64,000 nt of DNA from contig JBFOMH010000021.1 of assembly GCA_040830765.1 (NCBI GenBank), forward strand, positions 1-64,000, read 5' to 3'. This stretch comes from Puniceicoccaceae bacterium. Its GTDB lineage: Bacteria > Verrucomicrobiota > Verrucomicrobiia > Opitutales > Oceanipulchritudinaceae. Under the pieces are notes generated by a model. It did not search any database, was not told the DNA's origin, and saw only the letters and a list, made by a program, of their open reading frames with translations. Position numbers and translations under genes: made by a program. Of this stretch, positions 3,233 to 43,846 are shown one piece after another; position 1 is the stretch's first letter, and every line of letters begins with the position of its first letter.

Positions 3233-6200
3233 TTACTTGAGGAGCCAGACCCATCTTCCTGAGGGAGCCTCCGAAGCGACATAGGCATAGAGGTACTGCC
3301 ACCAGACCCAATTGCCAAGGATGGGCTCGCCATAGGGACTCCAGACCCATCCGAGGGTGTAGTCATCCACCCAGACACCGAGGCTTTCCTCCGCTTCACC
3401 GGGAGTGCCTCCCGGGTTGGGGCTGGCCTTCCATGCGGTCGATTGGGTTGGCCAGCCGCGTCTTCCGATGTTTGCCGGGATCAGCGAGTAGCCGGCGGTT
3501 GCGGCCTCCTCCGGCCACGGATTTCCGGGCTGATAGACGACTTCCTGGATCCGGCCAAGGGTGGCATGTTCCAGGACCAGGTGCTCACCGTCATTGGAAA
3601 GGTTGCCGGCATATTCACCGGCGACCGGGGCACTTGGATGCAGTTGCGCAAATGCGGCAGCATTGCTGACGACCAGGATACGTTCATCAGGCTGGATTTG
3701 CTGGCCGGGCAGGAAGCTGAAGCTGACCGCGCCGGAGAGTTGAACCCCGTACAGACTGATGGGAGCCGGACCGGCATTGCGGATTTCGATAAACTCGAGG
3801 TCCCGGCCCAAGGCGAGTTCCGTGGGCAGCGGGGCGTAGTGAATCTCCGCAATCTGCAAGTCGGCTGGATCCCCTTCTGGGTGGAAGTTGCCCTCCTGCA
3901 GGGGTCCCCACACGCCGTTGGAAAGGATGCGGGCCTTGATCGACGTCCGGAGATTGACGCTAAGGGGCTCTGAATAGACGAGGGCCTGCGGAGAGACCGA
4001 GCCTCCTGGCTGGCGGGGATCAGGACCGTTCAAGGTGTAATAGATGATCGGATTACCCGTGCTGAAGGTTTCCATGACGAGTGGGTTTTGCGGGGACAAC
4101 GAACCGGAGTACCGGGAAAATGTCGGAGCCGGGACCGGCGGGATGAGTCCGAGTTCGGCGTACTGCTGGAGGAGTAAACTGTTGCGGACCGGAATCAAGT
4201 TGTTGCGCAAGCGTTGGCGTTCCTTGACCCATTGGTTGTCCCGGGTATAGAGCTCGTAGGGTCCGGCAGTACGATGAACATCGCGGCGGTAGTCCCCCCA
4301 GCGGGCGGATTCTGCGACCAGAGCCCGGTAATTTTCAACTGAGCGTTCCTCCCAGAGTCGCAGGGCTTCATCGGTCGTCAGGACCCCGTTGTTGCGGAGG
4401 TGCTTCTGGATCCGGTCAGTGACAAGGATCCTGTACTCCGCATTACGGAGAAGGGAGTGGAATATTCCGCCCGGATTGTCCTCGGTATTCTTGAGGGTGG
4501 TGTTCGACTGCGGCGTCTCGAAGATGAACTCGCTATCCCAGGCCAGGAAGTACCACTTCCCTCCGTTACGGTTACGGATCGAATACCAGTTGTGGTGGTC
4601 CCAGTCCTCGTTGCCGCCCCAATGATTAAGCATCATGTAGTCGGTGAAGGCCTCCAGGTCCAGGACCTCGGCTATCTGGTTGTATACTCCCGGCTGGCTC
4701 GTGTCCTGGCGGACCAATGAAAGAAAGGTATTCCAGGCGTCGATTGTCCCATCGATGACCTCGCTGGAATTGAGGCAGTCATAATCGTCTTCATCGCCAC
4801 CGAAGTAGGAAGCGCCAAACTGGTTACTGGCCCTTTCCGTTGGATTGAAAAGACCCCAGAAGATGCCGTTGATGTAGAGGAAGGCGTTGATGTTGTGGAG
4901 GTAGGGTGAGCCCATTGCCCCCTGGAGGTCCTTGGCAAATTGGTCGCGGACGTACTGGGCGCGGCCCCGGTTGTCGCCCCGGAATGTATTGTGGTGCAAC
5001 CAGGACTGGTTGCCATGACCACGAAGGATGAGGGTATCAAACTCTGTGTCCGCATCCGGTTGCGGAAAGAGGGGAAACTTGAGATTGCCGTCCTCGTAAT
5101 CGCGACGGAAGGCGAGGCGGAAGGAGCGTTTTGGGGAGCGTTGGGGGTCCCGCATGTGACCGCCCTGCATACGGAGGCCGGCATCGATCTGGAAACCCTC
5201 ACGTCCATCGGGATAAATGAGCTCCAGGGAGACCGGTCGTTCCCAGTCCATGCCTGTCTCCTGCGGGTTCATGAAGATGCCAGTATTGCGGTCGAAAAGA
5301 TTCTCCTTGGCGGTGACAATGGAAAGCGTTGGCAGTGAGAGCAGCGACTGTCGCATCTGGTCCCTGTACTGGTCACTATCGGTCACTTCCGGGTCCATTT
5401 CGTAATCGGCCGGCATGTCCTCTCGGTTGCGGATGTTCTTCCAGGTCTGCGGATAGCCTTCGGGGTTGTTGTCCTGCCGGATGACGTCCTCGAGGAAGAT
5501 GTAGGTCTGGGTATCGACATCGGTTGCCTTGAAGCCCTCCTTGAAGGCATAGGCACGGAGGACGGTGGTCGTGGCAATGGGAACCGGTCCGGTGTAGGTT
5601 GTGCCATTGGATTCGGTCGGGAGGCTGCCGTCGGTGGTGTAGCGGATGGTGGCTCCCTCGGTGGCGCTGGTGATGACCAGATCAAAGGGCAGGTCATAAA
5701 AGCCCCGGTCAATTGAGAAAACGGTATCGGCGACGACTCCCTCGAAGGCGGGGACGAGATTGGCTGTACCCGGGGTCATGGCGGTAAAAAGCTGGTAGCT
5801 GCCGCTGGCGGAATCCCATCCGTAGGAAGTTCCAATCACCTGCGGGGGAAACTCCGGGGCCAGCTCACTGACCACGGTGCCGGCAGCGTTGTAGAGCCCA
5901 AGGTATTCACCGGAGGAACTGAGCTTGAAGGGAACCTGCAGGGGCAGGGCCGGGTCCCGCTGCTCGATATCCGTTGCAAAAACAAGGAGGTACCCATTGG
6001 CGGGAATGGAGACGGAGGGAAATATCCACTTACGGGGCAAGGTGGCGTCATCAGTCAGCGACCAGCCAGCCAGATCAATCGCTGTTGTCCCATAGTTATG
6101 CAGTTCGAGCCAGTCCCCCTCAATTCCGGTTGGCTCAGTGATGGGACTGGGTTCCTGCAGGCCGACAAAGTACCGCCACGGATCGGCCGGACCGTTCACG

Positions 6201-6829: not shown

Positions 6830-6881
6830 CTTCTGGGGTAGTAGACGGGGGAAAGACAGGGACAGATTAGGCAGAATTTTC

Positions 6882-9319: not shown

Positions 9320-9436
9320 GGAGTTCAAAGGAATGGCGGACCCGGCAGATTATTGAATTAATCAGTTCAGCTTTGGTGCCCTTCCTTGGAGTACAAGCTA
9401 GTACATATTACACCTCGAACCCTCAAACCAACTATT

Positions 9437-10399
9437 ATGAATAAAATCAAACTCACTACCCTATGTGGACTCGTTTCACTGTTTTCCGTCTCAGCGTTTG
9501 CTGAATGGGTCCTGATTACGGACTTTGAAGGCGCTGTCTATGATGACTTCGACCTGTACAAGCGCTTTGCTCCCCAAGGTGACCTGTACTTGAGTGGCTT
9601 TGACCCGGTCAATGCCGCCAATGGTCACTATTATGCCGACCCCGGACCGCAGGTTGACGGAGCAAACAACCAGATTTGGAATGGCTTCACCCTGCCGACC
9701 CCGGTCGCCGAAGGGGAAACCGCTACCCTCAAGTTTGACGTTTATCTCTACTCGACCGGTCCGTTCAATCTGAATGTCGGTCTCAGTGATATTCCGGTTT
9801 CCATCGACGACACACTCTCCAAGGAAAACGGCCAGCTGCTCGAGCCCAACAATTATGGTTCCTATGAATCGCAGATGGGTATCGGAGAGACCCTGAATGC
9901 CCGTAACGGCAGCGGCTTTACCAACACTGGGGTCTTTTCTCCTGTTGGCGAGTGGTTCACCCTTTACTATGTTGCGGACAATGCCAATGACGTGACCTAC
10001 TTCTACTACAAGACTGCGGCCATGTCGGTTCCGACTGCGATTCCCCTTCCGGATGCACCGTTTGCCCTTTTCCGCAACGGTACCACGGATCCCCTCGTGA
10101 CCTTCACGATTACCAGTGCGGGCAGTAACAGCGGACCGATTGATGTCTTCCTTCTCGACAATGTCTACATCGACACGACGGGTCCGAACCTTGATGGTGG
10201 TACCCATGTCGGTGGTGAATTCTGGGGCGGCTACCCCCTCTTCGATGAGTCGGGTAATGTCGACACCGGTGACTGGTTGAGCTTCATCAATGTGGCTTCC
10301 GACCCATGGATCTATGTCTATAATCTGTCCACCTACGTCTACATGCCTGAAGATTACGTAAGTGGCACCGGTTCCTGGGCTTACGTCCCGAACTTCTAA
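9437..10399 (+). CDS. Secreted beta-sandwich-like protein of unknown function with C-terminal Trp-rich domain
   Basis: ATG 9437 gives a clean signal peptide (MNKIKLTTLCGLVSLFSVSAFA); ends WGGYP...GNVDTGDWL...DPWIY...GSWAYVPNF. Confidence 0.8.
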   Translation: MNKIKLTTLCGLVSLFSVSAFAEWVLITDFEGAVYDDFDLYKRFAPQGDLYLSGFDPVNAANGHYYADPGPQVDGANNQIWNGFTLPTPVAEGETATLKFDVYLYSTGPFNLNVGLSDIPVSIDDTLSKENGQLLEPNNYGSYESQMGIGETLNARNGSGFTNTGVFSPVGEWFTLYYVADNANDVTYFYYKTAAMSVPTAIPLPDAPFALFRNGTTDPLVTFTITSAGSNSGPIDVFLLDNVYIDTTGPNLDGGTHVGGEFWGGYPLFDESGNVDTGDWLSFINVASDPWIYVYNLSTYVYMPEDYVSGTGSWAYVPNF

Positions 10400-10431
10400 T
10401 CCATCGGATTATCTGACAGGTTTGTTTTTTC

Positions 10432-10468
10432 AAGGGCCGGCGATGCAAATCGCCGGTCCTTTTTTCTT
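10432..10468 (+). terminator. Intrinsic terminator
   Basis: GGGCCGGCGAT-GCAA-ATCGCCGGTCC followed by a T-tract. Confidence 0.85.
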
Positions 10469-10477
10469 TCCAAACCC

Positions 10478-10494
10478 GTTCATACAATTATAAA
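10478..10494. promoter_or_regulatory. Shared operator-like motif, copy 2 (GTTCATACAATTATAAA)
   Basis: Exact reverse complement of 36001-36017; upstream of the TBDR. Confidence 0.6.
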
Positions 10495-10607
10495 TGGATA
10501 GCGGTTGAAGGCCGGAGATAATCCCAATGGGATGGCATCGGTGATTTAGCAGACTGAGCCGCCCGACGGCGGTAAATCGACCCCCATAACCCAGAACTAC
10601 AGACCTT

Positions 10608-13600
10608 ATGAAAGACGTACTCCGCAAACGACTTCAGGTTGTCCTGTTGGGCAGCCTGCTTACAAGCACCTGGGCAGCGGCCCAGGAAGGAATCGAACCT
10701 CCCGAGGAGGAGGAAGTATTTGAACTGTCCGCCTTCGAAGTGGTAACAACCAATGACCGTGGCTACCTGTCGACCAATGCGGTCTCCGGAACCAGTTTGA
10801 ACATGGCCATCCGTGACATCCCGATGCCTCTGGAAGTCATCAATCAAGAGTTCATCGAAGATTTGCAGGCGACGGATCTGGAGGAAGCTCTCGATTATTC
10901 CTCTGGTGTCTTCACGCAGACCTTTGCCAATGGGTCCGGCGCGAACGCGCAGGGGAGTGCGGAAACGTCCCCCTCTGCTTCTGTCAGTGTGAACAATCCC
11001 TTCGCCAACTCTATCTCCATTCGCGGGTATTCTGTCCCGAACCAGCAGCGTTTTGGTTTTCGGGTGGGTGGCTTCGCGGTGGGTGAAGGCTTCAGTGTGG
11101 TTCTTGGCGGTGCGACCGACACACTTAATGCCCGCCGGTTGGAAGTGGTGCGGGGACCGGCCTCGCTGCTTTACGGGGTCAACGTCCTCAGTGGTATCGT
11201 CAACATCATGCCGAAGCGTCCCTTGTCAGAGCCGCGGGCGAACATCGGATTGAGCATGGGTAGTCATGGATTCATGCGGGGCACGGTCGATTTCACCGGT
11301 CCGCTGATCAAGAACAAGCTGAATTACCGCATCATGGGCGCCTATGAGGAGCGCGATCATTTTACGGATTTCCGTGGTGATCGCAAGGAGTATCTCGCCG
11401 GCCAAGTGGAGTGGCAAATCAATCGCACCACCCGCCTGTTGACCGAAATCCAGTGGGCCGACCAGTTGCGGAATGGCATTGGGCCGCAGTATTTCCGGGA
11501 TACCGTGGGAGGCAGCGGGACCAACAATATCGATTTCCGCAACAAGTATGGTGAGTTTGTCCAGTGGGGCCGGGAAGACATGAGTGATCTGATGGACCGT
11601 GACGAAAGCGATCCCGATGATGTCTGGTTAATCCGCAAGACCAACCCCATGGTTCCCTATAGTTACGGCAACCTCGGGGACAGCTACCGGATCAGCGGTC
11701 CAGATACCTATTTCCAACGTGAAGAGCTGAACGCCCTTGTTCTGCTTGAGACCCGACCCCTTGAAGGCCTCAGCCTTGAACTCGGTGGATACTACACCAA
11801 GATCGATCAAGAACAATTCACCATCGTGACCAATTCCGTTACGGGCTCAGAGGCCTCCATCCGGCCGAGCGATCTTGTTCCCTTCCCAATCATTTCCCAG
11901 CAGAATTTCTGGATCCGGAATCCGGAAGTACTTGATGTCCTCGGCCTTACTGACGTTCCTGACGGGCCAATCCGTTCCAAATACGGTTTGGACGAAGCGG
12001 TAGGATTCAGCGTCACGACGGACGACATTCCCTATATCTTCAATCCGGGATCACTGCTTACCGTTACCAGTGGTGGTATTGGTGAAGTCTTTGCGGTGCC
12101 GGACCGGTCCTTACGGGCCCAGCTTCCTGACGATCCTCCGTACAACACGACCAACGTCAAATTTGCCCGCTACAACTGGATCAAGACGCCCACGGAAGCG
12201 GAATCCATCCAGCTGCGTCTTCGTGCCGCCTATGAATTTGAAACGGGTATTCCCTTCATCAATGGTGGAACAATCAAGCACACTATCATTGGCGGTTATC
12301 AGTATACCAAGGACGACCTGATGATCGTCTCCGGACGACCAGGTGTTCCCGACATGGTTACCCAGGGGCAGATTACCAAGCGACCCGATTCGGGTGCATT
12401 TACCAACGGACGCCTTGGGGATGATCCCTACCTTCTCCGGAAGAGCGTCTTTGATTATTCGCCGATCTATTATAATGGTGAGCCGATAGCTATCCCCGGT
12501 TCCCTCGGAACGAGTATCCAGGACTTGGGACCTCTTCTCGATGAATATGTCAACGACGGCAAGGTCACCCATCCCGACGAAATCATCGGGCATAACCTGG
12601 CGCGTTCCGGCTGGCGTGACGTGGAAGCGGAGTACGGCGGCATCTACGGTATTTACCAGGCGCAGCTGTTCACCGACAAGCTGACCTTCATTGCTGGTGC
12701 CCGGCAGGATTCCTATCAGGTCGAGGAAACGGAACAGATCCGTCTCCTCGATGGCACGCCCTTCATTGACCCGACCAAGACTGGGACTCAGACCGATATC
12801 TACTACGGCAGTCAATCACTGACGACGCTCCCGTTCCTCATTAGCGGAACAGAGCCCTATTCCCAGGATAAGTGGTTTTCCGTTTTGCCTGACAACCTGA
12901 ATGAAGAAATCGAGCGGGAGATGGACCTTCTGCTGGAAGGACTCGGCGAGCAGGGGACCCGAAGCAAATTGTTTGAGGAAACCCAGAAGTTCGTCACCAA
13001 CACGGCTGGCTTGTCCTATCGGATTACAGAAGACCTGAGCATGTATGTTACCTATTCGGAAGGGGTTTTCCCGAATCAGGGACTCCGTGACGGAAATAAC
13101 AATCCGATTAAGGCGGAGCAGACAACCGGCAAGGAAATTGGCTTCAAGTTTGATTTCTTTGACGGCAAGATTTCCGGCACCGTTTCCTTCTTCCAGATCG
13201 AGCGGGAGAACGCCACCTGGAACTTCCGCTACGCTCCGTCACCGCGCCGATGGATTGGCGGCCGTTTCGGGGATTCCGAGACCGAGGCCTACGAGAAGCA
13301 GAGTTATGGTAACTTTGACGCCAAGTCATGGGTCAGTGGTGACGGTGCCGAGGCCAGGGTTTATGAGGACTTCTTCTTCTCCGGCTATGGCCAGCCCTAC
13401 CAGCAGGCCAGTTACGGCGTCCATGAGGACTTCTTCAAGCAGGCCTGGCGGGACTTCATTGGCGAGGAACCGCCCGAAAACCTGAACATTGCCATAATCG
13501 AAGAATTAACCGGTATCAACTTTTTGGCCGCGAACGACTTTGGTGTCGGTGGTTCCCAGGAGAACCTCGGCGAGGTCGACCCTTACTATTTTGCTGACGT

Positions 13601-14453
13601 CAACCGGGACCTGGTGGCGGGCAAGCATATCAATGAAAACGGGGTTGATGTCGGCCTGATGATGCAAGCTGCCTTCGATGCAGCCCTGGCCGCGAAGGAG
13701 TTCGATGGTTTCAGCATCTACTACATCAACAATGGACGAAACGGCGAATTTGGTGCGGGTAACAATCCCAGCAACCAGACCGGCGCCCTGGTCACTTTCA
13801 AGGAAGAGACCATTGGTGTGGACGGGCAGATTATCTTCAGCCCGACAAACAATTACCAGATCCTCCTGACCTATTCCCACCAGCAACGAGAAGTTGTTGG
13901 GAACGGATTTGACCTGGCACCGCTCATTGATCCGGTGACCGGAATGAAGATTGTCGGGACCAAGTATGATTCCTGGGTACAGGTGCTCGGGGAGGAAAAT
14001 TTCAGCGATCCGGGAGACCCGACGACCTTCAACGGCAATGGGGTCAACGGCCTGGACCTGTCATTTGTTCCCGAATGGAATGTCAGTCTCTGGAACAAGT
14101 ACCGCTTCAATGAAGGTCCTCTTGAAGGGCTGGAGCTGGCCGGTGGTGTGAAGTACTATGGTGAGGCACCAACATCAGTGCCGATTGGTGGAACGCGCTT
14201 GAACGAGAATGAATTCCCGACCCCACCGACACCGGAGCGGTTTGAATTCGATGCCAGTCTTTCCTACCGGTTCACCTTGATGAACCAGGATTGCCGGATC
14301 GCCCTGAAGGTGAACAACCTTCTTGATGACCGGGTTGACGAGGCCGTTGTCCAGTACGAGGATCCGGATGGACCGATTAATCCTGTCTATCGTCGGACCC
14401 GCGTCTACTACGGACCACGGACCTACCGTTTGCAGTTTTCCATGGCCTTTTAA
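10608..14453 (+). CDS. TonB-dependent receptor, large verrucomicrobial type
   Basis: Signal peptide, VFELSAFEV TonB-box-like segment, plug (LEVVRGPASLLYG), C-terminal NNLLD...YYGPRTYRLQFSMAF with terminal Phe. Confidence 0.95.
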   Translation: MKDVLRKRLQVVLLGSLLTSTWAAAQEGIEPPEEEEVFELSAFEVVTTNDRGYLSTNAVSGTSLNMAIRDIPMPLEVINQEFIEDLQATDLEEALDYSSGVFTQTFANGSGANAQGSAETSPSASVSVNNPFANSISIRGYSVPNQQRFGFRVGGFAVGEGFSVVLGGATDTLNARRLEVVRGPASLLYGVNVLSGIVNIMPKRPLSEPRANIGLSMGSHGFMRGTVDFTGPLIKNKLNYRIMGAYEERDHFTDFRGDRKEYLAGQVEWQINRTTRLLTEIQWADQLRNGIGPQYFRDTVGGSGTNNIDFRNKYGEFVQWGREDMSDLMDRDESDPDDVWLIRKTNPMVPYSYGNLGDSYRISGPDTYFQREELNALVLLETRPLEGLSLELGGYYTKIDQEQFTIVTNSVTGSEASIRPSDLVPFPIISQQNFWIRNPEVLDVLGLTDVPDGPIRSKYGLDEAVGFSVTTDDIPYIFNPGSLLTVTSGGIGEVFAVPDRSLRAQLPDDPPYNTTNVKFARYNWIKTPTEAESIQLRLRAAYEFETGIPFINGGTIKHTIIGGYQYTKDDLMIVSGRPGVPDMVTQGQITKRPDSGAFTNGRLGDDPYLLRKSVFDYSPIYYNGEPIAIPGSLGTSIQDLGPLLDEYVNDGKVTHPDEIIGHNLARSGWRDVEAEYGGIYGIYQAQLFTDKLTFIAGARQDSYQVEETEQIRLLDGTPFIDPTKTGTQTDIYYGSQSLTTLPFLISGTEPYSQDKWFSVLPDNLNEEIEREMDLLLEGLGEQGTRSKLFEETQKFVTNTAGLSYRITEDLSMYVTYSEGVFPNQGLRDGNNNPIKAEQTTGKEIGFKFDFFDGKISGTVSFFQIERENATWNFRYAPSPRRWIGGRFGDSETEAYEKQSYGNFDAKSWVSGDGAEARVYEDFFFSGYGQPYQQASYGVHEDFFKQAWRDFIGEEPPENLNIAIIEELTGINFLAANDFGVGGSQENLGEVDPYYFADVNRDLVAGKHINENGVDVGLMMQAAFDAALAAKEFDGFSIYYINNGRNGEFGAGNNPSNQTGALVTFKEETIGVDGQIIFSPTNNYQILLTYSHQQREVVGNGFDLAPLIDPVTGMKIVGTKYDSWVQVLGEENFSDPGDPTTFNGNGVNGLDLSFVPEWNVSLWNKYRFNEGPLEGLELAGGVKYYGEAPTSVPIGGTRLNENEFPTPPTPERFEFDASLSYRFTLMNQDCRIALKVNNLLDDRVDEAVVQYEDPDGPINPVYRRTRVYYGPRTYRLQFSMAF

Positions 14454-14484
14454 GAGGTTGTTATAGGTATCCATTAGGTTTAGG

Positions 14485-14526
14485 AGAAAGAAAGAAAAGG
14501 TCCCATCCCTTTTCTTTCTTTTTTTA
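14485..14526 (+). terminator. Terminator-like hairpin between the TBDR and the enzyme genes
   Basis: AAAGAAAGAAAAGG-N7-CCTTTTCTTTCTTT followed by a T-run. Confidence 0.6.
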
Positions 14527-14538
14527 TGGGAGGATTTC

Positions 14539-23381: not shown

Positions 23382-23397
23382 CGGTATATCTTATTAT

Positions 23398-24339
23398 ATG
23401 ACAACCACTCTCAAGAAATTTTTCCTCTCGCTTCTGGGTGCCGGGGCCATTGCTTCAACCTGTCACGCGGAGCTCACGCTCCTGTTCCGTGAAGACTGGG
23501 CAGAGATTCCCTTCGCCCTGCCGATCACCCAGGAGCATGTGGCCAACCCGGACCTGCAGCTTCACCTCTATGGCGGGGCAGTGGACTACCTGAAAAAGAG
23601 CAACCACGACAACATCCCCAACGATCCCTATTATGTCTGGTCCGGGGAAATCCGGGATACCGCGAACTGGGCCGCAACGCTCGGTTTCAAGGACGGGACG
23701 GTCATGGACCTTACCGGCGAGGCGAGCATCCGCTGGCGCACCCGCCAAAGCGGTGAGCATTGCCTGCGGGTCGTCTTGCGCCTTGTTGGTGGTTACTGGC
23801 TGATCTCAGGGCCCCTGGATTGTGAGTCGGCAGATTGGCAGGTTACGGGGCATCGTTTCAGCAGGCTTACCTGGGTCAGGTTGGAGGCGGGAGAACTGGA
23901 TTTTGCCAATATTTAGGAAGTCGCCTCACCGGATCTCTCTGCTGTGGTCGAGGTGGGGTTTACGGACATGAAGGCCGCCAACGGCACCCCGAGTTCATCC
24001 CGGGTGGACTGGCTGGAGGTGCGGGGAAAATCCGTTAACCTAAGCTGGTACAGCGCCTATCCGGAGATCGACGGCTGGCGTACGGTCCCGTGGTTGGGCC
24101 GGATATCGGTTGCGCTCGATCCCTGGGTTTTCCACGAGCACATGAGCTGGATCCAGGTATTCGAGGGGCAAAACGGAAGCTTTGTCATCTGGGATCCGGA
24201 AATCGGATGGACATGGACCGCCGAAGGCTGGTTCCCGTATCTTTACTCCTACGGTAACACCTGCTGGTATTATTTCCTGAGCGGTCCCAGTCCGCGTTGG
24301 TTTTTCAACCTGAACACGGGCGAGTGGGAACTGTTCTGA
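23398..24339 (+). pseudogene. Secreted protein with C-terminal Trp-rich domain, interrupted by an in-frame TAG at 23914-23916
   Basis: ORFs 23398-23916 and 23944-24339 share a frame; read through they give ...LDFANI*EVASPDLSAVVEVGFTDM...; the second part has no signal peptide. Confidence 0.75.
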
Positions 24340-24363: not shown

Positions 24364-26775
24364 TCAATTGAAGGCTGTTTCTATCCGGTGACTGCCGGGG
24401 CCGAGTTGCAAATCGCCCGCCACGCCGACCGCAACCGCCTGACCATTCAAGGCAGCCTCGCCAGAAGAGCCCTCGGGCAGAACCACGGTACAGGTAGAGC
24501 CCTCGGGAACAATCGCCTCGATACTCAACTTGCCGTCGGACAGCTTCCATGAGGATCCGGCTTTGCCTTGTGGGGTTCGGAGGGTAGCGCGGGCCCAGGT
24601 CAGGTTGCCCCCGGGTTGTGGCCGAACAAAGAAGTGCTTGTAACCGGGATTGTCCGGATCGGGGGCGAGGCCGGCAATCGTCTCGTACATCCATTGTCCG
24701 ATGGCCCCGTAGGCATAGTGGTTGAAGGAATTCATGGCCACATTGCCGAATCCTTCAGCGTGGCTGTAGCTGTTCCATCGTTCCCACATGGTTGTCGCTC
24801 CCTGGTGAATGGAGAATATCCAACTGGGATAGGTCTCCTTGAGGACGATCTCGTAGGCCAGCTTGGTCTTGCCGTAGCGGGTCAAGGTTGGCGCCAGGAG
24901 AGGGGTACCGACAAAGCCGGTACCGAGATGGTTGTCGGCTTCCTCAATTAGCCGAATAAGGTTATCGAGGGCCTGTACCTCAGCCTCCTCGTCCAGCAGG
25001 TCGAAGGCGAGAGCGAGAAGGTAGGCTGTCTGGGTGTCTGAGGACAGTTTGCCCTCGGGTAGCCAGAAGGTCTCCACAAAGACCTGCCGGACTTCCTCAG
25101 CGAGCTTTTTCAAGCGTTCCGCCTCCTCGACCTCACCAATCAACCCGGCGATCCTGGCGGTTAGCCCTGCACCGTAGGCGAAATGGGCCGTGCCGATAAG
25201 GGAACGGTTGGTATCCCCCTTGTTGTCACCATTCTTTGGATACGGCTGCAGCCAGTCCCCGTAGCCGGTTTCCTCGCGGACCAGGCCGGGTGAGTTGGTT
25301 TTCTGGTAATCGAGCCAGGCCAGCATGGCCTCAAAGTTGTCACGCAAAATACCAATGTCACCATAGCGTACATAAATTTCCCAGGGAATGAGATAAATGG
25401 CATCCGACCAAGCCGGGCTTTCACGGAAGGAGCTTTTGAAACCATCCGGCGCGATGACCGGGACGGACCCGTCCTCCCGTTGAGCGTCCCGCACATCGAT
25501 CATCCATTTGTTAAAAAAGTCGAGGACATCGAAGTTGAAGCTGGCCGTGGGGCAGAATATCTGGGCATCACCGGTCCAGCCAAGGCGTTCGTTGCGCTGG
25601 GGACAATCGGTGGGGACCTCGAGGAAATTGCCTTTCTGCCCCCAGATGATATTGCTTTGCAGCTGATTGAGAAGATCATTCGAGCAGGCAAATTCACCGG
25701 ATTGATCCATGTCGGTGTGCAGGACAATCCCTTCCACCCAGTCTGCGCTTGGGACGGCGTCTTCCGGCAGGCCAGCCAGCCCGACATAACGGAATCCATG
25801 GAATGTGAACGTAGGCTCCCATTCCTCAAGATCAGAGCCTCCCCGGGCTATGTAAATGTTAGTGGACTTCGCTGAGCGGTAATTTTCAGTATAGAGATTA
25901 CCATCCTGCTGCAGCATCTCGGCAAAGCGGATGGTGATTTCCCGGCCCTCCTCTGAGGGTAGACGGACCTTCGCCCAGCCAACCATGTTCTGGCCGAGAT
26001 CGAAGAGCCATTCCCCGTTGGGGGCCTTCCAGAACTTTTGTGTCGAAAGTATGTTCATGCGGCGAACCGGGCGAATCCTGGCCGGCTCGATGAGGACATC
26101 GGCATCCAACGGCCGCATGGCCACAGATTCCCATCCGGAGTCGTCAAAACCGCTGCGGTCCCAGCCGTCCATTTCCAGCCGGGCATCGTAGATCTCCCCG
26201 TCGTAAATATCGGACATCAGGATGGGTCCAGTTGCCGTCTTCCAGGAGTCATCTGTGGTGAGAAGGATATCCCGACCGTTTGCTCCGGGCGTTTCCATCT
26301 GCAACAAAAATTCGGGATAGTCCCCGTAACAGGCTCGTCGGTTGATGAACATCTTCCCGCAATACCAGCCATCACCAAGCATAACGCCGATGGTGTTCGT
26401 TCCCTCACGGAGCAGATCCGAGACCTCGAAGGTCTGGTACGGGACCCGGGTATGGTAATCCGTCCATCCGGGTGAGAGTTCCCCGTCACCGACCCGCTGG
26501 CCATTGATGTAGAGTTCATAGAGCCCGAGGGCTGTCACGTGGGCGACCACACTTGAGGGAACCGCCTCAAGCTCGAATTCCTTGCGCAGGTAAGGGGCAG
26601 GCCCCGGCTCATTGCGGTCCACGCCTTCCATGTAAATCCATTGTGCTTTCCAGTCCACAGTTGTCTCTTTCTCTGACGTTGCAATTGTCGTTAAAGCCAT
26701 GCTCCCGCAGCCCAGCAAGGTGGCGGCCAGGGCTGCCGTGAAACGGCGGGTTATCCTCGAAAAATATATGTCCAT
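24364..26775 (-). CDS. Alpha-L-rhamnosidase, GH78
   Basis: TALGLYE, PGWTDY, DLGQNMVGW, FTFHGFRY, PTDCPQRNERLGWTGD, GATTMWERW, NSFNHYAYG. Confidence 0.95.
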   Translation of the reverse strand: MDIYFSRITRRFTAALAATLLGCGSMALTTIATSEKETTVDWKAQWIYMEGVDRNEPGPAPYLRKEFELEAVPSSVVAHVTALGLYELYINGQRVGDGELSPGWTDYHTRVPYQTFEVSDLLREGTNTIGVMLGDGWYCGKMFINRRACYGDYPEFLLQMETPGANGRDILLTTDDSWKTATGPILMSDIYDGEIYDARLEMDGWDRSGFDDSGWESVAMRPLDADVLIEPARIRPVRRMNILSTQKFWKAPNGEWLFDLGQNMVGWAKVRLPSEEGREITIRFAEMLQQDGNLYTENYRSAKSTNIYIARGGSDLEEWEPTFTFHGFRYVGLAGLPEDAVPSADWVEGIVLHTDMDQSGEFACSNDLLNQLQSNIIWGQKGNFLEVPTDCPQRNERLGWTGDAQIFCPTASFNFDVLDFFNKWMIDVRDAQREDGSVPVIAPDGFKSSFRESPAWSDAIYLIPWEIYVRYGDIGILRDNFEAMLAWLDYQKTNSPGLVREETGYGDWLQPYPKNGDNKGDTNRSLIGTAHFAYGAGLTARIAGLIGEVEEAERLKKLAEEVRQVFVETFWLPEGKLSSDTQTAYLLALAFDLLDEEAEVQALDNLIRLIEEADNHLGTGFVGTPLLAPTLTRYGKTKLAYEIVLKETYPSWIFSIHQGATTMWERWNSYSHAEGFGNVAMNSFNHYAYGAIGQWMYETIAGLAPDPDNPGYKHFFVRPQPGGNLTWARATLRTPQGKAGSSWKLSDGKLSIEAIVPEGSTCTVVLPEGSSGEAALNGQAVAVGVAGDLQLGPGSHRIETAFN

Positions 26776-29411
26776 GTGCTTGCGCCCGGGGTTAGGGTTT
26801 TGCTGGCCAGGTACATCCAGCTGTTCAGGTTAACGCAGTATACGTAGGGGAAAGCTGAATATTCAAGCCAGCCTAAGGGAGGGCCATAATCGAGCCAATC
26901 CCCGGTGGATTGTTCCGTAAACGCCGCCTTGGTCGACGGGTCGGCAGTGAGAAGGGAGTCACCGTACTGTAGTGAACTGCCACTACCAATGTAAAGGGAC
27001 TTGAGGTCGCCATTCTCACTTGTCGTCACGACCCCGAAGTGACCGGTAAAGGTGATGCCCAATCCGGGATTGGAGTAGGTTTCGTCAAGGTTATCCAGGA
27101 TGATGATGTATTGCCGCAACAATTCGCCATCAATCATGCTTTCGACAACGAGACCCTTGAAGGGGCCGCCATCATTGAGATTCTCAACCGACTGGATGGC
27201 CGGCCCCTCGGTGGCGTTGGTATAGGATTCGAATACACAGGCAAAAGGATTGGTCCATGCCTCTCCATCCTGGCGGACAACCATGGTGGGGATGTCCCGC
27301 CCGGCATAGGAGGTCGGGGCGTTCTTTGACGAAGGAGCCATCGCCTTGCTATAGGTCTGGAGCGGTCCACCGGGCATATGGATATCCATGGAGGCGGGTC
27401 CCCGTGGCATGCGGAAGATGTTGAAGCGGGCCTGGACAGGTTCTGCAGTTGCAGTCGCTGTGTAGACCTCCTCAAAGAAGTGCCACCCGGGATTGCGGTA
27501 CTGCCGGTTCTGCTGCCAGGGCAGATTGAGGCTGTTGTGAAAGCGAGCAGGGGTCGGGACGAATAGGAACGGGTCCGGTCCTTCGGGAAAGGACAGGCTT
27601 TCCCCGACATTATGGTAAACATAGTCGTGGTACTGGCCCGGGGTGTCGGAGCGGGCCCGGAAGACATCGACATAGTAACCGCGGGTAGGGGAAGTCCGGA
27701 TAAGGGCCAGTGTGCGCTGATGCTCGGCCGGGGCCATTGTGTTGTGGCGGTCGTAAAAGGTCGTCGTGCTGAAGGAGTGCCACGGTGAGACCGCATCCTC
27801 CCTCGGCATGGGTTCCATGGCCTTCAGCTGGACGGTCTCGATACCAAGGTTGACCCATCCGCCGGATCCGGCGGAGGCCCCGTTGGAAATAACCGTGTTG
27901 TGGGCTGCGAAGATGCGGTAGTAGTTTTCATGGATATCGGACCGGTAGCTGCCGGGCCCGCTATCGATGCCGAGGACCTCCCCCTCGCCATAGAGCTCGA
28001 TGTTCATCCCGGAGGCGTGTCCATGGACATAGCCAGCCCCACCGACAAAGAGCATCAAGCCGGCATTTTCCGGATCGGTACTACTCTCGTTCCGCTGGAT
28101 GAAGATGCCGGCAAATGGCAGTTCATCGGTCCTTGGTTTAGGATACTCAGTTGCCTCCCCGAGCAGGTCCGGGACAGCCCAAAGCAGGCGGATGGGGGTG
28201 AAGTAGGGATGGGCCCCATAGCTTCGCGAGGGAAGGGTTGCCCTGTTATAGTTGCCCTTGGCGATGCCTGTTTTGATGAGGGAACCGAAGCGGATCATGC
28301 TTTCCGTATCTCCGGCCAGGGAGGAGAGGTAATAGGCTTTTTCAAAGGCAAGGAAGTCCGGGCCATAATAGCGGGCCCCGTCGCCAAAGCTGATGACGTC
28401 GTCATTGGGATAGCGCAGCGGATCCATGCGCCCGTTGGCGGCGACCACGTTGGGGTACTTCTGGGCCAGATCGAGATCCGGATAGAGGCGGTCCAGAACC
28501 CCCATCAGGTAAGTGGACAATTCTGCTACCCCGGTCGAGTATTGCAGGGATTCCGGCCAGATGTCACCCGGCTTCTCGTAGCTTTGCGCCACTACGGAAA
28601 GCGGATCCTGCCGGGTCGTGTTCTTGTTCAGGTAGAAGGGCAGGTACTGGTCAATCTTCTCCTGCGTGTCCATCATGAGGGTATTGCCAACGAGACTCGG
28701 CGATTCCAGAACCGACCAGTTGGAGCCGGAGTGACCCACCTCAATGGCCATGTCGGCATAGGTCTTGAAGACCGTCTGTGCATCAGCAAAGGGGAAGTCC
28801 CGCTCCCCGCCGGTGACGATATCGTGGACCTTGGCCCCGTTCTGGACAAAGGTATAGATGAAGTCGCAGGCTACCGGTATCTGGGCACCGAAAATGCGCG
28901 CCTCCTTGAGGTGGTCGCTGGTATAGACCAGTCCCCCGTTGCCCGCTGAACCCTTCCGCTCCATCCGGGCGAGGCAGGAAACCACCACCCCCATGATGTC
29001 GGCCGCCGCCTGGGCATAGCGCTCCTCGCCGGTCAGGTAGTAAACCACCCCGCATTCAATGGCATCCTGCAGGAAGGGCATGATGATGTAGCGGTCGCTC
29101 TCACTGCTGGTGATGTATCGGAACCGCGGGTGGGCAGCCTGACCAGCATACCAGTCGAGTGGAAGTTCCTTCAGGAAGGCATCCCGATCGGTTTGGTGCT
29201 TGCTGACAGCAAGGTCCGCCCGGGCCCGCAAGTTGTTGAAAAATGTGCCCGCCCACGCCTCGTTGTGAATCTTTTCATTGATGGCCTCTTTATCGTCCGG
29301 AGACACCCAGATGCGCGGGTGTTCGAGGGCCGCTTTGGCTGAAAACAGGCACAGGTGTAGGGTGAAGAGCAACACGGCAGATTTTCGCAGCTCAGTTATT
29401 CGGGGTTTCAT
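26751..29411 (-). CDS. Heparinase II/III-like polysaccharide lyase with C-terminal Trp-rich domain
   Basis: Signal peptide, HPRIW, WPESLQYS, FGDG, HGHASGMNIELYG, AAHNTVI, YYVDVFR, HDYVYHN. Confidence 0.8.
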   Translation of the reverse strand: MKPRITELRKSAVLLFTLHLCLFSAKAALEHPRIWVSPDDKEAINEKIHNEAWAGTFFNNLRARADLAVSKHQTDRDAFLKELPLDWYAGQAAHPRFRYITSSESDRYIIMPFLQDAIECGVVYYLTGEERYAQAAADIMGVVVSCLARMERKGSAGNGGLVYTSDHLKEARIFGAQIPVACDFIYTFVQNGAKVHDIVTGGERDFPFADAQTVFKTYADMAIEVGHSGSNWSVLESPSLVGNTLMMDTQEKIDQYLPFYLNKNTTRQDPLSVVAQSYEKPGDIWPESLQYSTGVAELSTYLMGVLDRLYPDLDLAQKYPNVVAANGRMDPLRYPNDDVISFGDGARYYGPDFLAFEKAYYLSSLAGDTESMIRFGSLIKTGIAKGNYNRATLPSRSYGAHPYFTPIRLLWAVPDLLGEATEYPKPRTDELPFAGIFIQRNESSTDPENAGLMLFVGGAGYVHGHASGMNIELYGEGEVLGIDSGPGSYRSDIHENYYRIFAAHNTVISNGASAGSGGWVNLGIETVQLKAMEPMPREDAVSPWHSFSTTTFYDRHNTMAPAEHQRTLALIRTSPTRGYYVDVFRARSDTPGQYHDYVYHNVGESLSFPEGPDPFLFVPTPARFHNSLNLPWQQNRQYRNPGWHFFEEVYTATATAEPVQARFNIFRMPRGPASMDIHMPGGPLQTYSKAMAPSSKNAPTSYAGRDIPTMVVRQDGEAWTNPFACVFESYTNATEGPAIQSVENLNDGGPFKGLVVESMIDGELLRQYIIILDNLDETYSNPGLGITFTGHFGVVTTSENGDLKSLYIGSGSSLQYGDSLLTADPSTKAAFTEQSTGDWLDYGPPLGWLEYSAFPYVYCVNLNSWMYLASKTLTPGASTWTYIFRG

Positions 29412-31222: not shown

Positions 31223-32071
31223 ATGAATAAATCAAAACGTAGGCGCCTAATCAGTATCGCAGCGGGCTTGGCGCTCCTGCCGGCGGTTGCCTCAGCAACC
31301 GTCATTAATATCTGGAGCTCGATTGGAGATGAAGCGAACTTCTCCGGTGGCTCCGCCATTACCGATCCTATCCCCGATCCACTTTCCGGTTCTGGTGTTG
31401 GCATTGTCGATCCTTCGGATATCGGCAATGGTTCCGCTCTCTTTTACTGGGATGACGACTCGGGTTCGCGCGTTACCTCCCGGTACCATACCGGTGGTTT
31501 CACCGAAGGTATCCAGGTCAATTTCACCGGGCGGGTTGCTTCCGGCAGTCCGGCAGGGGATCTCCTGTTCCGGATCGGCGACACTACCTCCAGCCTGGCC
31601 TCTGGTGGGGATGCCGCCATTGATATCCGCATTTCGGACGCGGGCAACCTCCGCTACTTCTATGGAGGTGGTGATGATTCCATGAGCGTGGGAGTGGATA
31701 CCAACTTCACGTTTTCCATGGTTATCAATGCCGCACCCCTGTTGGGAGCCGACTTCTCCTACGATGCCGGTGGTTCCATGACGACCCTGGCCCCGCAGGA
31801 GTTCGACCTCTTCATCAATGGCAATTTCGTCACTCGCCAGACGACCCGCCTTGATGAGACCAACGACTACGATGCCTTGAGCCTGGCCCGGTTCTGGTTC
31901 CTCACTGGGGGCAGTACAGCCGGCTCATCCCCGAGTATTCTCATCGACGACTGGACCATCAATACCGAGACAGATGTCATCGGTCCCTCCGCTGTTCCGG
32001 AACCGTCGCTCTATGCTGCCATCATCGGCCTCGCAGGATTGGCCTTTGTGTTCCTCCGTCGCCGCAAGTAG
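31223..32071 (+). CDS. PEP-CTERM protein
   Basis: Signal peptide; C-terminal VPEPSLYAAIIGLAGLAFVFLRRRK. Confidence 0.92.
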   Translation: MNKSKRRRLISIAAGLALLPAVASATVINIWSSIGDEANFSGGSAITDPIPDPLSGSGVGIVDPSDIGNGSALFYWDDDSGSRVTSRYHTGGFTEGIQVNFTGRVASGSPAGDLLFRIGDTTSSLASGGDAAIDIRISDAGNLRYFYGGGDDSMSVGVDTNFTFSMVINAAPLLGADFSYDAGGSMTTLAPQEFDLFINGNFVTRQTTRLDETNDYDALSLARFWFLTGGSTAGSSPSILIDDWTINTETDVIGPSAVPEPSLYAAIIGLAGLAFVFLRRRK

Positions 32072-32104: not shown

Positions 32105-32139
32105 GGGCGGCCTCCCAAGTGGAGGTCGCCCTTTTTTTT
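32105..32139 (+). terminator. Intrinsic terminator between convergent genes
   Basis: GGGCGGCCTCC-N5-GGAGGTCGCCC followed by a T-tract. Confidence 0.85.
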
Positions 32140-32995
32140 AATCCTTGGGAATGTAGGTCCAGGCGCCAGACCCGGTTACGCTGTCGCCGGGGAGGTACAT
32201 ATAGCGGGAAATGGAATACGACCAGGCCCATGGGTCAAATTGGACATTGAGCCAGCCGAGGAATGTGCCGGTGTCGACGTTCCCCTGCGCATCGGCAAAA
32301 TAGGGGCCCCATGGGGTTCCTTCAGGGGCGAAATTGGATGCCTCGAGGGAGTTGAAAAGCGCCTCATTGGTTCCTTTGCCGGTGACCTGGTTGGCGAGTG
32401 AGTACTGCGAGCGATCCCAGAGAATGAAGCGGTCAACCAAGTGGTCCCGGGAGCGGACGGACATCTGGATGGCGTATTCCTGGCCGGACTCGAGGACCCA
32501 CGAAAGGGAGTGCGGATCATTGTCCTTGTTGGAAGCCTGGTGGGACCAGCCCCTGGCGTCGTTCATGTAGACCTTGTACCATGAACCCGAGGTGGCGACA
32601 TTCTGGTTGGGGACCGGCGTGACCGGGTTGCCATTGCTGTCAACGAGGCGGATAAAGGAATCGTTGTTGTCCGTATTGCTGGTTCCGACCCCGATGCGGG
32701 AGCGGAAGGCAAACTGGTAGGTCCCGGCGCGACTGATCCGCAGTGGATAAGTAATCGTCCCAAGATTGGGGGTATTGAATGAATTGACGTTACCCCGCAG
32801 GTAACCGGTGCCCTTGAAGCCGGTGATGCTGTCACCAAAATCAAATCGCAGCCCTGAATCCTGGGTTTCGGCCTCTATGACGACGAGGCCGTCTGCTTCA
32901 AGAGCTGTCTGGGCATGGCCCGTCAGGCAGAGGATCGGAGCCGCAAGGGCTGCCAGAAGAATGGTCAATTTGTTGGTCATATTGTGTTTTATCAT
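32138..32995 (-). CDS. Secreted carbohydrate-binding-like protein with C-terminal Trp-rich domain
   Basis: Signal peptide; EADGLVVIEAE...GFKGTGYL...ND S...LVDRFIL beta-sandwich pattern; ATGA overlap with the GH43 stop. Confidence 0.75.
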   Translation of the reverse strand: MIKHNMTNKLTILLAALAAPILCLTGHAQTALEADGLVVIEAETQDSGLRFDFGDSITGFKGTGYLRGNVNSFNTPNLGTITYPLRISRAGTYQFAFRSRIGVGTSNTDNNDSFIRLVDSNGNPVTPVPNQNVATSGSWYKVYMNDARGWSHQASNKDNDPHSLSWVLESGQEYAIQMSVRSRDHLVDRFILWDRSQYSLANQVTGKGTNEALFNSLEASNFAPEGTPWGPYFADAQGNVDTGTFLGWLNVQFDPWAWSYSISRYMYLPGDSVTGSGAWTYIPKD

Positions 32996-39074: not shown

Positions 39075-39077
39075 GGC

Positions 39078-41941: not shown

Positions 41942-43846
41942 ATGAGAAAAACCATACCAATGTCCCTGTTCAAATCAGCCAGACAACGGGCAGCCCTGCT
42001 GAGCCTTGGCCTGGCCATTACACTGCCGGCGGTGACCGCCTCAGCGGAGGTCGATGTGCTGAAAATAACGGAAGTGGATCCGACTGGCCTGACATTTGCT
42101 GACGGTTCACAGACGAAGTTCAGCAACAACATCAATGGCCGGACATTCGGCAAGCAGAACGCGGTAACCAGTTTTAACGGCTACCAGTATACCACCTACT
42201 ACGACAAGGATCGTTATGTTGTCCTTGGCCGGCGTGAACTTCCCGACGGGGAATGGGAACTGATCCGCTTTCAGGATTACAACATCACCAGCAGTGACGC
42301 CCATAACATCACATCGGTCGGCATTTGCGAAGGGGATGGAACCATTCACCTCTCATTTGACCACCACAAACACGACCTGAATTACCGGGTATCGGAGCAG
42401 GGAGTGGCCACGAATCCAAAGGCTGTCAACTGGACCAAGGACCTTTTTGGACCTGTCACCGACCAACTGGGATCTGTTGGCAAGCTGACAAACGTAACTT
42501 ACCCACGCTTTTTCAACGCTCCCAATGGTAACCTGATGCTCTACTATCGCGATGGTGGATCAGGGAATGGCCGGGGTGCCCTTCAGGAATATGATGCCAC
42601 GACCCACGATTGGACAACCGGTCTGGGCACCTTCATTTCCAGCGTTGGTTTATACAGCGGAACCTACACCTCCAGCAGTTCATCGCGGAATCCCTACCTC
42701 AATGGGATTTTCTACGCCGGGGACCGCCTTCATGTCTCCTGGGGCTGGCGGGAAACGACCTCTTCCCGCAGTAACCACGATGTTTGTTATGCCTACAGCG
42801 ATGATCACGGCCGCACCTGGTACAATACCGATGGCATTAAAATCGGCACCATCCGGACGAGACCCATGATCGTTACCGATCCCGGGCTGGTTGTCGGGGA
42901 AATCCCGCAGGACGAGGGTCTGACCAATCAGTACACTTCCTATTATTATCCGGATGGACGGGCCAGCGTCATGGTCTACCACAGCAACCGGTACGAGCAC
43001 TACTTCCGGACAGTCGATGGTACCTGGGACCTTGATATCCTGTCATTCGTCGGAAGCCGGCCGGACATTGCCGGTGACAAGGACGGTAATTTGTTTCTCG
43101 TTTACTCCTCCGGTGGGCGCCTGAAGATTGCCAAGGGAACGCCCAACAGCGAAGGGACAGCCTGGACCTGGAAGGTGATTTACACCCGTGGCGATGCCAC
43201 GGAAATGGGTGAAGGCATTTATGACCGTAGCCGTTGGGAAACGGATCGGATTCTCTCCGTCTTCGGCCAGGAGCAGCCGCCACAGACTCTTGACTATGGC
43301 AGTGGTCCGATGATCGACGGTATTCCGGCACCGGTGCACATTATTGACTTCCACGTTTCCTCCAGTGCGGTCCTGCCGGTACCGCGGAGTGGAGCTGGAC
43401 TCGTGCAGACATCCAGTAACCTGACCTGGACACCCGGACAAGGCGCAACAGCGCATCAGCTCTACATCGGTTCAACCGAGATATCCGTGAAGAGAGCGGA
43501 CACCAGTTCCCCGGAATACATGGGTGAAGTGCAAACGGCGGAATACACGCCGGCCAGCCTTGAAGCGGACCAGACCTATTTCTGGCGTGTCGACCAGGTC
43601 CAATCGGACGGTTCGGTCGTCAAGGGTGCGGTCTGGAGCTTTACCACCGCAAGTGACGTTGTCGTGACGGAGTGGGCCGGGTACCCGGTTTCCGAAGCGG
43701 GTGATGTCAATACGGACCCCTGGATGGGCTTTCTGAATGTGACCCTGGAGCCCTACGTCTGGAGCTACAGCTTGAATCAGTGGACCTATATCGAGGAATC
43801 CATCGTCACAGAGGATGGCAGCTGGACGTATTTCCTGAACCTATAG
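41942..43846 (+). CDS. BNR-4 beta-propeller (lyase-like) protein with Fn3-like and C-terminal Trp-rich domains
   Basis: Signal peptide; YQYTTYY, DAHN..SVGI..GDGTIHLSFDHH, TYPRF, YRDGGSGNG, YAYSDDHGRTW; YFWRVD...GAVWSFTT. Confidence 0.8.
   Translation: MRKTIPMSLFKSARQRAALLSLGLAITLPAVTASAEVDVLKITEVDPTGLTFADGSQTKFSNNINGRTFGKQNAVTSFNGYQYTTYYDKDRYVVLGRRELPDGEWELIRFQDYNITSSDAHNITSVGICEGDGTIHLSFDHHKHDLNYRVSEQGVATNPKAVNWTKDLFGPVTDQLGSVGKLTNVTYPRFFNAPNGNLMLYYRDGGSGNGRGALQEYDATTHDWTTGLGTFISSVGLYSGTYTSSSSSRNPYLNGIFYAGDRLHVSWGWRETTSSRSNHDVCYAYSDDHGRTWYNTDGIKIGTIRTRPMIVTDPGLVVGEIPQDEGLTNQYTSYYYPDGRASVMVYHSNRYEHYFRTVDGTWDLDILSFVGSRPDIAGDKDGNLFLVYSSGGRLKIAKGTPNSEGTAWTWKVIYTRGDATEMGEGIYDRSRWETDRILSVFGQEQPPQTLDYGSGPMIDGIPAPVHIIDFHVSSSAVLPVPRSGAGLVQTSSNLTWTPGQGATAHQLYIGSTEISVKRADTSSPEYMGEVQTAEYTPASLEADQTYFWRVDQVQSDGSVVKGAVWSFTTASDVVVTEWAGYPVSEAGDVNTDPWMGFLNVTLEPYVWSYSLNQWTYIEESIVTEDGSWTYFLNL

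Follow-up and report, generated by a model that had tools for sequence, protein, structure and literature searches.

Two homologous aromatic tail modules on exported proteins of a marine Verrucomicrobiota family: a candidate surface anchor

A tryptophan- and tyrosine-rich module of about 55 residues recurs at the C-terminal end of otherwise unrelated exported proteins in a 64,000-nucleotide stretch of Puniceicoccaceae bacterium DNA (assembly GCA_040830765.1, contig JBFOMH010000021.1, positions 1 to 64,000). We refer to this whole stretch as the window (C21:1-64000), to the genome that contains it as G000, and to the tail as module A. A second, homologous tail of about 100 residues, module B, occurs in the same genome, and one or the other is present on 90 frames with unrelated cores. 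Judged by their sequences, modules A and B appear to form an unnamed family and are candidates for new domain-family entries. We give an even chance to the reading that the tail is a noncovalent retention anchor, which keeps exported proteins on the cell surface, and not a cleaved secretion signal.

Two related modules and where they occur

The genome (3.99 Mb in 40 contigs, 96.9% complete) was cut into 54,337 stop-to-stop frames of at least 40 amino acids each. A profile made from three clear tails of the window matched more than 50 of these frames at E values of 1e-10 to 1e-37, and the similarity among the tails is therefore far above chance. Four profile iterations led to convergence on 55 frames with 64 instances of module A (independent E value [i-E] below 1e-3). 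These frames have diverse Pfam cores and mostly signal-peptide-like starts, in agreement with the initial annotation of this DNA, which had proposed that unrelated exported proteins share the module. Searches with jackhmmer from a B tail, together with a profile of its strong matches, placed module B on 37 frames, 35 of them outside the A set. Homology between the two modules spans roughly the first 34 columns of each (hhalign probability, 96%; E = 4.3e-9), and jackhmmer seeded with B also reaches many A tails. By a simple and lax heuristic, signal-peptide-like starts are present in 50 of the 55 A frames and 31 of the 35 B frames, compared with 999 of 2378 background frames; several of the misses are fragments or frames with a visible hydrophobic leader.

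The initial annotation had assigned six proteins of the window to one module. Their ends, and a stop codon that interrupts one of the genes, are as follows.

10223..10396, plus strand: module A tail at the end of a 337-residue exported protein (gene 9386-10399; profile i-E, 1.1e-19)
32141..32311, minus strand: module A tail at the end of a 285-residue exported protein (gene 32138-32995; profile i-E, 2.6e-20)
43673..43843, plus strand: module A at the end of a BNR_4 protein (BT3686-type, rhamnosidase-like; gene 41942-43846; profile i-E, 2.4e-19)
26754..26924, minus strand: divergent copy of module A that ends a heparinase II/III-like protein (gene 26751-29411), the core of which matches Pfam PF07940
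24046..24336, plus strand: module B tail of ~97 residues at the end of the interrupted gene 23398-24339 (jackhmmer/profile searches, AlphaFold2, and hhalign)
23914..23916, plus strand: in-frame TAG that divides the B-tail gene into a 172-residue part with the signal peptide and a 140-residue part with the tail
3236..3400, minus strand: Trp-rich end of the CotH protein (gene 3233-6829), not demonstrable as a member of A or B

Three clear copies of module A and the divergent copy on the heparinase-like protein (i-E improving from 5.9e-5 with the three-tail profile to 2.4e-11 on iteration) bear out four of the proposed six; the protein at 23398-24339 belongs to B, and the CotH protein fails. The three tails that had been quoted translate exactly, except that the one at 32138-32311 lies on the minus strand and its coordinates are meaningless when translated on the plus strand. 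All six proteins have signal-peptide-like N termini when inspected by eye, as had been stated.

The tail at 23398-24339 had been described as apparently doubled; it is instead a single B module in a gene split by the TAG codon. The orthologue in congener G006 is a single unbroken frame with module B at its end, and that in congener G009 stops shortly past the equivalent point, without the tail. Since the TAG at 23914-23916 recurs without differences in contigs from separate runs, namely, two RNA-library runs and one run of a second study (X2, X3, and X4), we regard it as a real allele and not an assembly error. As for the CotH tail, neither the A nor the B profile matches positions 3236-3400 with all filters off. 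A BLAST comparison with the second half of B gave an E value of 4e-5, obtained without composition correction and in a tiny database. The window CotH protein may carry a decayed remnant of the module, because a CotH paralogue (G000:C11:75608-78307; 32% identity over 95% of the core) ends in a true B tail. Membership of the CotH tail in A or B is not confirmed.

Module A is predicted to fold independently as a small, all-beta domain studded with aromatic residues, in line with the aromatic beta-hairpin domain that had been envisaged. Its AlphaFold2 model (61-row alignment, headed by the tail at 10223-10396) has four short strands and no helix, with a mean predicted local distance difference test (pLDDT) score of 94.3 and a predicted template modeling (pTM) score of 0.78. 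The model of module B (32-row alignment; pLDDT, 94.6; pTM, 0.82) is a meander of ten strands. In the A tails, tryptophan and tyrosine make up 9.8% and 8.7% of residues, versus 1.5% and 2.6% in long frames of the genome, while lysine and arginine make up 1.3% and 1.1%, versus 3.5% and 5.9%. Ten columns of module A are at least 85% aromatic, one tryptophan (column 52) is invariant, and an Asp-Thr pair (columns 14-15), a glycine, and a proline are nearly so. The ten aromatic side chains presumably cannot all be buried in so small a sheet.

Comparison of the models with the PDB returned little for either module. For module A, the best Foldseek E value was 5.2 and the best VIA-align Z score was 2.8 (48,161 chains); for module B, these values were 0.56 and 4.7, the latter with a root mean square deviation of 2.4 over 48 residues. 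The best VIA matches of both models are to the aromatic-rich OCRE domain of RBM10 and lie under the noise level of the tool. No Pfam model covers the tail in any of the 52 carriers scanned, and 61 tails searched alone gave nothing meaningful in Pfam (E up to 5) or NCBIfam (E up to 1), the latter producing scattered single matches for A and none for B. We found no description of either module in openly accessible full-text literature. The earlier impression that this is not a named family was therefore correct, as no Pfam, NCBIfam, or PDB entry covers the module.

A few candidate relatives were considered and set aside. DUF7183 (PF23811) matched 9 of the 61 tails weakly (best E, 0.032), and its best match in the genome scored 16.9 bits against a cutoff of 27 bits. 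Kelch matches of the tails in Pfam were likewise weak and below the cutoff. Profile searches of the PDB yielded a match of module A to several of the choline-binding repeats of LytB (7pl5; E, 0.015) and a match of module B to a designed Kelch protein (E, 0.022), both too marginal to serve as evidence of family.

Among relatives of the window's genome, module A was found in all 18 genomes of the same family and in none of 12 other families within that order. When 400 genomes were drawn evenly across the phylum, it was found in all 5 family genomes and in none of the remaining 395. Of 36 other genomes of the family, 31 carry it (E up to 1e-5), at 2 to 76 matches each and in 12 of 15 genera; the five family genomes that lack it are 69 to 92% complete. 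In the same 400-genome draw, module B was found in all 5 family genomes and in 9 of the remaining 395; these nine come from seven other families, and three of their matches are weak. B is thus wider, though sporadic, which suggests that A split off from an older module and stayed within the family. Matches to A among the 1.84 billion proteins of a representative library number only 1056 at E values up to 0.001 and 593 at E values up to 1e-10. Look-alikes in the ESM Atlas are confined to unnamed Verrucomicrobiota clusters, with trypsin, sulfotransferase, 5'-nucleotidase, and cadherin as cargo. The whole BNR_4 protein of the window had relatives in two Roseibacillus loci alone, where the similarity covers the core but does not reach the tail. 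Together with the ESM Atlas result, these relatives underlie the placement of the genome in the phylum.

Position, exchange with PEP-CTERM, and cargo

The last copy of module A ends 1 to 5 residues before the stop codon in 46 of the 55 frames. Another five have 37 to 42 residues beyond it, which constitute a partial extra repeat that the B profile also covers. The remaining four frames, namely, two pectate lyases, a CBM9 protein, and a 1015-residue frame at a contig edge, have copies directly after the signal peptide or internally. Strict C-terminal placement, which the initial annotation had suggested testing, holds for most frames but does not extend to these four. A tandem double of the module ends four frames. 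Among the best 148 library representatives, module A lies at most 6 residues from the C terminus in 134 and 7 to 50 residues from it in 5, and it is N-terminal or internal in 9, all of which are doubles. Three short library proteins (P0104, P0105, and P0048) consist of a signal peptide and two A modules, with no cargo. No conserved motif that might represent a processing site was found ahead of module A, where the linkers are short and mildly rich in threonine, glutamate, and proline.

Module A substitutes for PEP-CTERM, a C-terminal sorting signal, at the same junction in adjacent paralogues. The A-tailed protein at G000:C12:62474 is 57% identical to its PEP-CTERM neighbor at C12:63596, and three A-tailed proteins (C34:11799, C34:17558, and C34:18490) are 59 to 64% identical to a PEP-CTERM protein at C34:16525. 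In both sets, the two kinds of ending start at the same alignment column. A search outside the family for the ancestral ending of the C34 core found that core in only one other genome. Exchanges between A and B were also seen, on RCC1, GH88, LRR_5, and PL6-like cores.

Across genomes, module A is not coupled to exosortase. EpsH is present in three copies in this genome and has a match in 34 of 36 family genomes; one genome (G521) has module A without an EpsH match, and four (G517, G511, G513, and G510) have EpsH without module A. The tail itself has no membrane helix or basic cluster, and PEP-CTERM proteins co-occur with it; tail composition and the paralogue endings uphold the initial annotation on both points. 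This genome encodes three secretins and three exosortases.

The cargo was surveyed by a Pfam scan of 52 carriers (51 loci and one window gene; E up to 1e-3), to which the proteins of the window were added. Glycoside hydrolase (GH) cores of A carriers include GH16 (three), GH10, GH88 (two), and GH95, and lyase-like cores include pectate lyase (two), chondroitinase-B-like, and heparinase II/III-like proteins. Other enzymes with the module are a sulfatase (G000:C4:124045-126003), proteins with FGE-sulfatase domains (two), a GDSL lipase, and a glucose/sorbosone dehydrogenase. Binding or adhesin-like carriers comprise CBM96, CBM9, CAP (two), BspA-type leucine-rich repeat (LRR; two), RCC1, cadherin, and DUF4465 proteins; a multihaem cytochrome with an MtrC/MtrF-like domain and a BNR_4 protein were found as well, and many carrier cores match no family at all. 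The module had been thought to route or dock polymer-attacking enzymes, a restriction that does not hold for the cytochrome, CAP, RCC1, LRR, and cadherin proteins or the homologue of a B12 binder described next. Its reported absence from GH78, GH106, and sulfatase proteins is accurate within the window but not beyond it, as the sulfatase listed above carries A.

The DUF4465 carrier (G000:C4:297755-298735) ends in module A and is homologous to BtuJ1 (PDB 9fct; E, 2.7e-21) and to Coraliomargarita D5EK51 (9hmu; E, 2.2e-19). The 250-residue 9hmu chain stops at the end of the DUF4465 domain, and so the tail is not in any solved structure. BtuJ1 is termed surface-exposed in the title of a reference within PMC13398666, and that article locates the BtuJ1/D5EK51 protein family at "the periplasm or cell surface." Some of the cargo families, among them the BtuJ1-like, MtrC/MtrF-like cytochrome, LRR, and cadherin proteins, are surface-located in other bacteria.

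Retention at the cell surface and competing explanations

Three lines of evidence lead us to favor a retention anchor over a cleaved signal. Module A replaces PEP-CTERM at the same junction; it occurs in tandem, directly after the signal peptide, internally, and on proteins free of cargo; and it sits on proteins whose relatives elsewhere are surface-exposed. The size of the family, the exchanges between A and B, the aromatic composition, the distribution of signal peptides and tails in the window, the adjacency of some carriers to TonB-dependent receptors, the lack of a conserved motif ahead of the module, and its independence of exosortase also count in favor of an anchor. Of the two roles first suggested for the tail, docking fits better than routing across the outer membrane because of this same freedom of placement. 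In the mechanism that we propose, carriers would be exported by Sec and then cross the outer membrane by some route, after which the module would attach to a ligand in the envelope of the producing cell itself. The likeliest ligand would be a glycan or a cationic head group, gripped by stacked tryptophan and tyrosine residues on an acidic domain poor in lysine and arginine. First-contact enzymes and binding proteins might in this way stay beside TonB-dependent importers, a task that in Bacteroidota falls to the lipid anchors of Sus-like proteins.

A fuller version of this proposal is that one marine Verrucomicrobiota family has its own noncovalent surface-display system, built from a pair of homologous, aromatic beta-meander modules whose fold has no match in the PDB, carried by ~90 proteins per genome, interchangeable with PEP-CTERM, and binding an envelope ligand through cages of tryptophan and tyrosine. 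We advance it tentatively, at a little under an even chance. If true, it would be a two-membrane counterpart of choline-binding or S-layer homology (SLH) anchoring in Gram-positive bacteria and a functional stand-in for the lipid anchors of Bacteroidota Sus-like systems.

Several considerations weigh against a surface anchor. Ligand binding, partner, and localization rest wholly on inference, and neither predicted fold has a structural relative that hints at a binding function. The resemblance to LytB (7pl5) is marginal, and CW_binding_1 matched none of the 61 tails at E values up to 5. The signal-peptide heuristic is lax enough to score 42% of background frames as positive. Proximity to receptors is limited to 4 of the 55 A carriers, which lie less than 500 bp from one of 17 TonB-dependent-receptor-like frames, versus 41 of 2362 background frames. 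The GH88 and GH95 cargo is usually exo-acting and not obviously composed of surface enzymes. A C-terminal bias of 46 in 55 is also what a sorting signal would produce, and the element with which module A changes places, PEP-CTERM, is a bona fide sorting signal. Cargo-free proteins, moreover, are not decisive, since PorA is reportedly a protein with a type IX secretion system (T9SS) C-terminal domain (CTD) and no obvious cargo role.

The strongest competitor holds that the tail is a C-terminal secretion or sorting signal, read by a lineage-specific translocon or processing enzyme and then removed or used for covalent attachment in the manner of a T9SS CTD. We judge this to be unlikely, albeit worth keeping in mind, because of the strong C-terminal bias (46 of the 55 carriers and 134 of the 148 best representatives end in the module) and the exchange with PEP-CTERM, itself a sorting signal, at the same junction. 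The combination of many cargo types with one ending and with signal peptides, and a narrow distribution that would suit a lineage-specific machine, are also what it would lead one to expect. It fits poorly with the tandem doubles, the N-terminal and internal copies, and the cargo-free proteins made of a signal peptide and two A modules, and no conserved cleavage motif lies upstream of the module. The T9SS CTD models were unmatched. SprA (TIGR04189) had no match in this genome either, in a search that lacked a positive control, as the model also matched none of 14 control genomes. No partner gene was identified, although no systematic search for one was made.

Two known C-terminal signals can be compared with module A. 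According to Haft et al. 2006 (PMC1569441), PEP-CTERM combines a PEP motif with a membrane helix and a basic cluster, and it is linked to EpsH and exopolysaccharide. Like module A, it is a short C-terminal element present in many copies on diverse signal-peptide proteins of bacteria with an outer membrane, and in this genome the two are exchangeable on the same cores. Unlike it, the 61 tails have no PEP motif or hydrophobic helix, and module A, as modeled, is a soluble all-beta domain with almost no lysine or arginine that is uncoupled from EpsH and not confined to the C terminus. The T9SS CTD, too, is a C-terminal domain that is folded and rich in beta structure, and in polysaccharide degraders it is shared by dozens of exported enzymes and adhesins that are otherwise unrelated. 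We take Pfam PF18962, TIGR04183, and TIGR04131 to represent the type IX secretion C-terminal domains of Bacteroidota. Nothing of this kind was matched by the 61 tails in Pfam (E up to 5) or NCBIfam (E up to 1) or by the 52 whole carriers in Pfam (E up to 1e-3); module A, moreover, belongs to another phylum and, in contrast to a CTD that is present once and strictly at the C terminus, is also found in tandem, N-terminally, and internally.

Two further explanations keep the tail as a binding module and change what it binds. It could be a dockerin-like, protein-protein or self-associating module that assembles enzymes on a scaffold, either a giant repeat protein or one another, which we consider quite improbable. 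One small end module in two types on dozens of enzymes is indeed the genomic pattern of dockerins, tandem doubles could mimic a dimer, and the genome has giant repeat frames of up to 18,661 amino acids. Dockerins also have some cargo that is not carbohydrate-active, and they consist of duplicated, helical, calcium-binding loop-helix segments. The model of module A is all-beta, without a helix of four or more residues, and neither carriers nor tails match a Pfam dockerin; no cohesin-like partner was identified.

Alternatively, the tail could be a carbohydrate-binding module (CBM) that aims enzymes at algal polysaccharide and not at the cell. Its aromatic richness is typical of sugar-binding surfaces, many carriers are carbohydrate-active enzymes or sulfatases, and the window itself is a rhamnose-directed polysaccharide locus. 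We nonetheless think this highly improbable, as the module is shared by enzymes that act on different, unrelated substrates (the GH16, GH10, pectate lyase, GH95, and PL6-like proteins) and by carriers that are not carbohydrate-active, including the cytochrome, CAP, RCC1, and B12-binder-homologue proteins and the trypsin and sulfotransferase clusters. It also swaps with a cell-anchoring signal, and no CBM family model covers the tail.

Returning to the surface anchor, comparable systems include the choline-binding repeats of pneumococcal proteins such as LytB (7pl5), aromatic beta-hairpin units that hold diverse exported proteins noncovalently. Choline-binding repeats are mostly C-terminal and in a few proteins N-terminal. 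Module A differs in being one 55-residue unit instead of a run of ~20-residue repeats, in having no match to CW_binding_1 among its tails, and in having a Gram-negative host. SusD/E/F-like proteins and BtuJ1 resemble the present carriers in that binding proteins and first-contact enzymes are encoded beside TonB-dependent receptors, and the BtuJ1 homologue here carries A. In Bacteroidota, however, the anchor is an N-terminal lipid, whereas here it would be a C-terminal protein module, with surface exposure inferred. A shared end module that places exported proteins is a known kind of system; its implementation here is new.

Verrucomicrobiota rank among the principal marine consumers of sulfated algal glycans. 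To our knowledge, they have neither a type IX system nor the lipoprotein-based logic by which Bacteroidota export proteins to the surface. About 90 exported proteins with a shared end module offer a handle on how polysaccharide-degrading arsenals are placed in this phylum. The module would predict which enzymes act at the cell surface, could provide a tag for surface display, and points to an envelope ligand or partner. If it is an anchor, it would give bacteria with two membranes a means of enzyme display that has not been described before.

The polysaccharide locus and neighboring features

Three other features of the window are relevant to its tailed proteins.

10608..14453, plus strand: TonB-dependent receptor of 1281 residues (Pfam Plug and TonB_dep_Rec_b-barrel), directly downstream of a tail-A gene and first in an operon-like run
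22644-23381: TonB (TonB_C), near the end of the same operon-like run, before the B-tail gene
31223..32071, plus strand: PEP-CTERM protein whose C terminus consists of PEP, a hydrophobic stretch, and RRRK, beside the tail-A gene 32138-32995

Positions 6981-43846 resemble a polysaccharide utilization locus aimed at rhamnose-rich sulfated glycans, with two sulfatases among its genes. From 9386 to 24339, the gene order is a tail-A protein, the TonB-dependent receptor, GH106, GH42, an Sde182-like protein, a sulfatase, TonB, and the B-tail gene. Surrounding this run are a pair of GH78 genes, the A-tailed heparinase-like gene, one BNR_4 gene with A and another that lacks it, GH43, GH3, a LacI regulator, and a sodium:solute symporter. 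The receptor, at 1281 residues, is unusually long.

Within the window, a signal peptide and a tail are combined in the lyase-like protein, one BNR_4 protein, and two small proteins that resemble binding proteins. A signal peptide without a tail is found in GH78, GH106, the Sde182-like protein, a sulfatase, and the second BNR_4 protein, which are exo-type enzymes. GH42, GH3, and one of the sulfatases lack a signal peptide. Such a distribution over three levels would be expected from a division of labor among surface, periplasm, and cytoplasm. The second BNR_4 protein, with its signal peptide but no tail, is the paralogue at 29552-30985.

The two small A carriers of the window have cores without relatives in PDB searches. 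The core of gene 9386-10399, which lies directly upstream of the receptor, is unannotated; it is remotely homologous to the core of another small, receptor-adjacent carrier elsewhere in the genome (C4:278001). The core of gene 32138-32995 shares 44% identity with the N-terminal portion of a GH88 protein, which likewise has module A at its end.

On the minus strand at 1724-6829, the CotH kinase-like gene, which also encodes lamin-tail and chitobiase-C-like domains, adjoins genes for VTC-domain and DUF4956 proteins; upstream of these are HlyD-like and outer-membrane efflux genes.

Elsewhere in the genome, four giant, repeat-rich frames (C19:151240-207222, C5:130171-175248, C19:124577-151015, and C17:166769-190708) encode 18,661, 15,026, 8,813, and 7,980 amino acids, respectively, and may be scaffolds or adhesins; the screen for repeat scaffolds that listed such giant proteins yielded no testable partner for the tails. 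Of 3214 frames of at least 250 amino acids, 23 show a third type of ending in their final 16 residues, "...(F/Y)(F/W/Y)R(L/I/V)...", versus 8 and 9 in two control windows. No family emerged when jackhmmer was seeded with one such end, the "...FFRIL" of a tail-less paralogue. This ending is often on tail-less paralogues of A or B carriers, with examples at C5:255075-257864, C26:52704-55373, C12:27135-28832, and C19:51115-53235 of G000. Finally, the carriers themselves are clustered in places: a hot spot at G000:C5:57000-115100 holds ten A or B carrier frames in ~58 kb, and smaller clusters lie on C34, C19, and C13.

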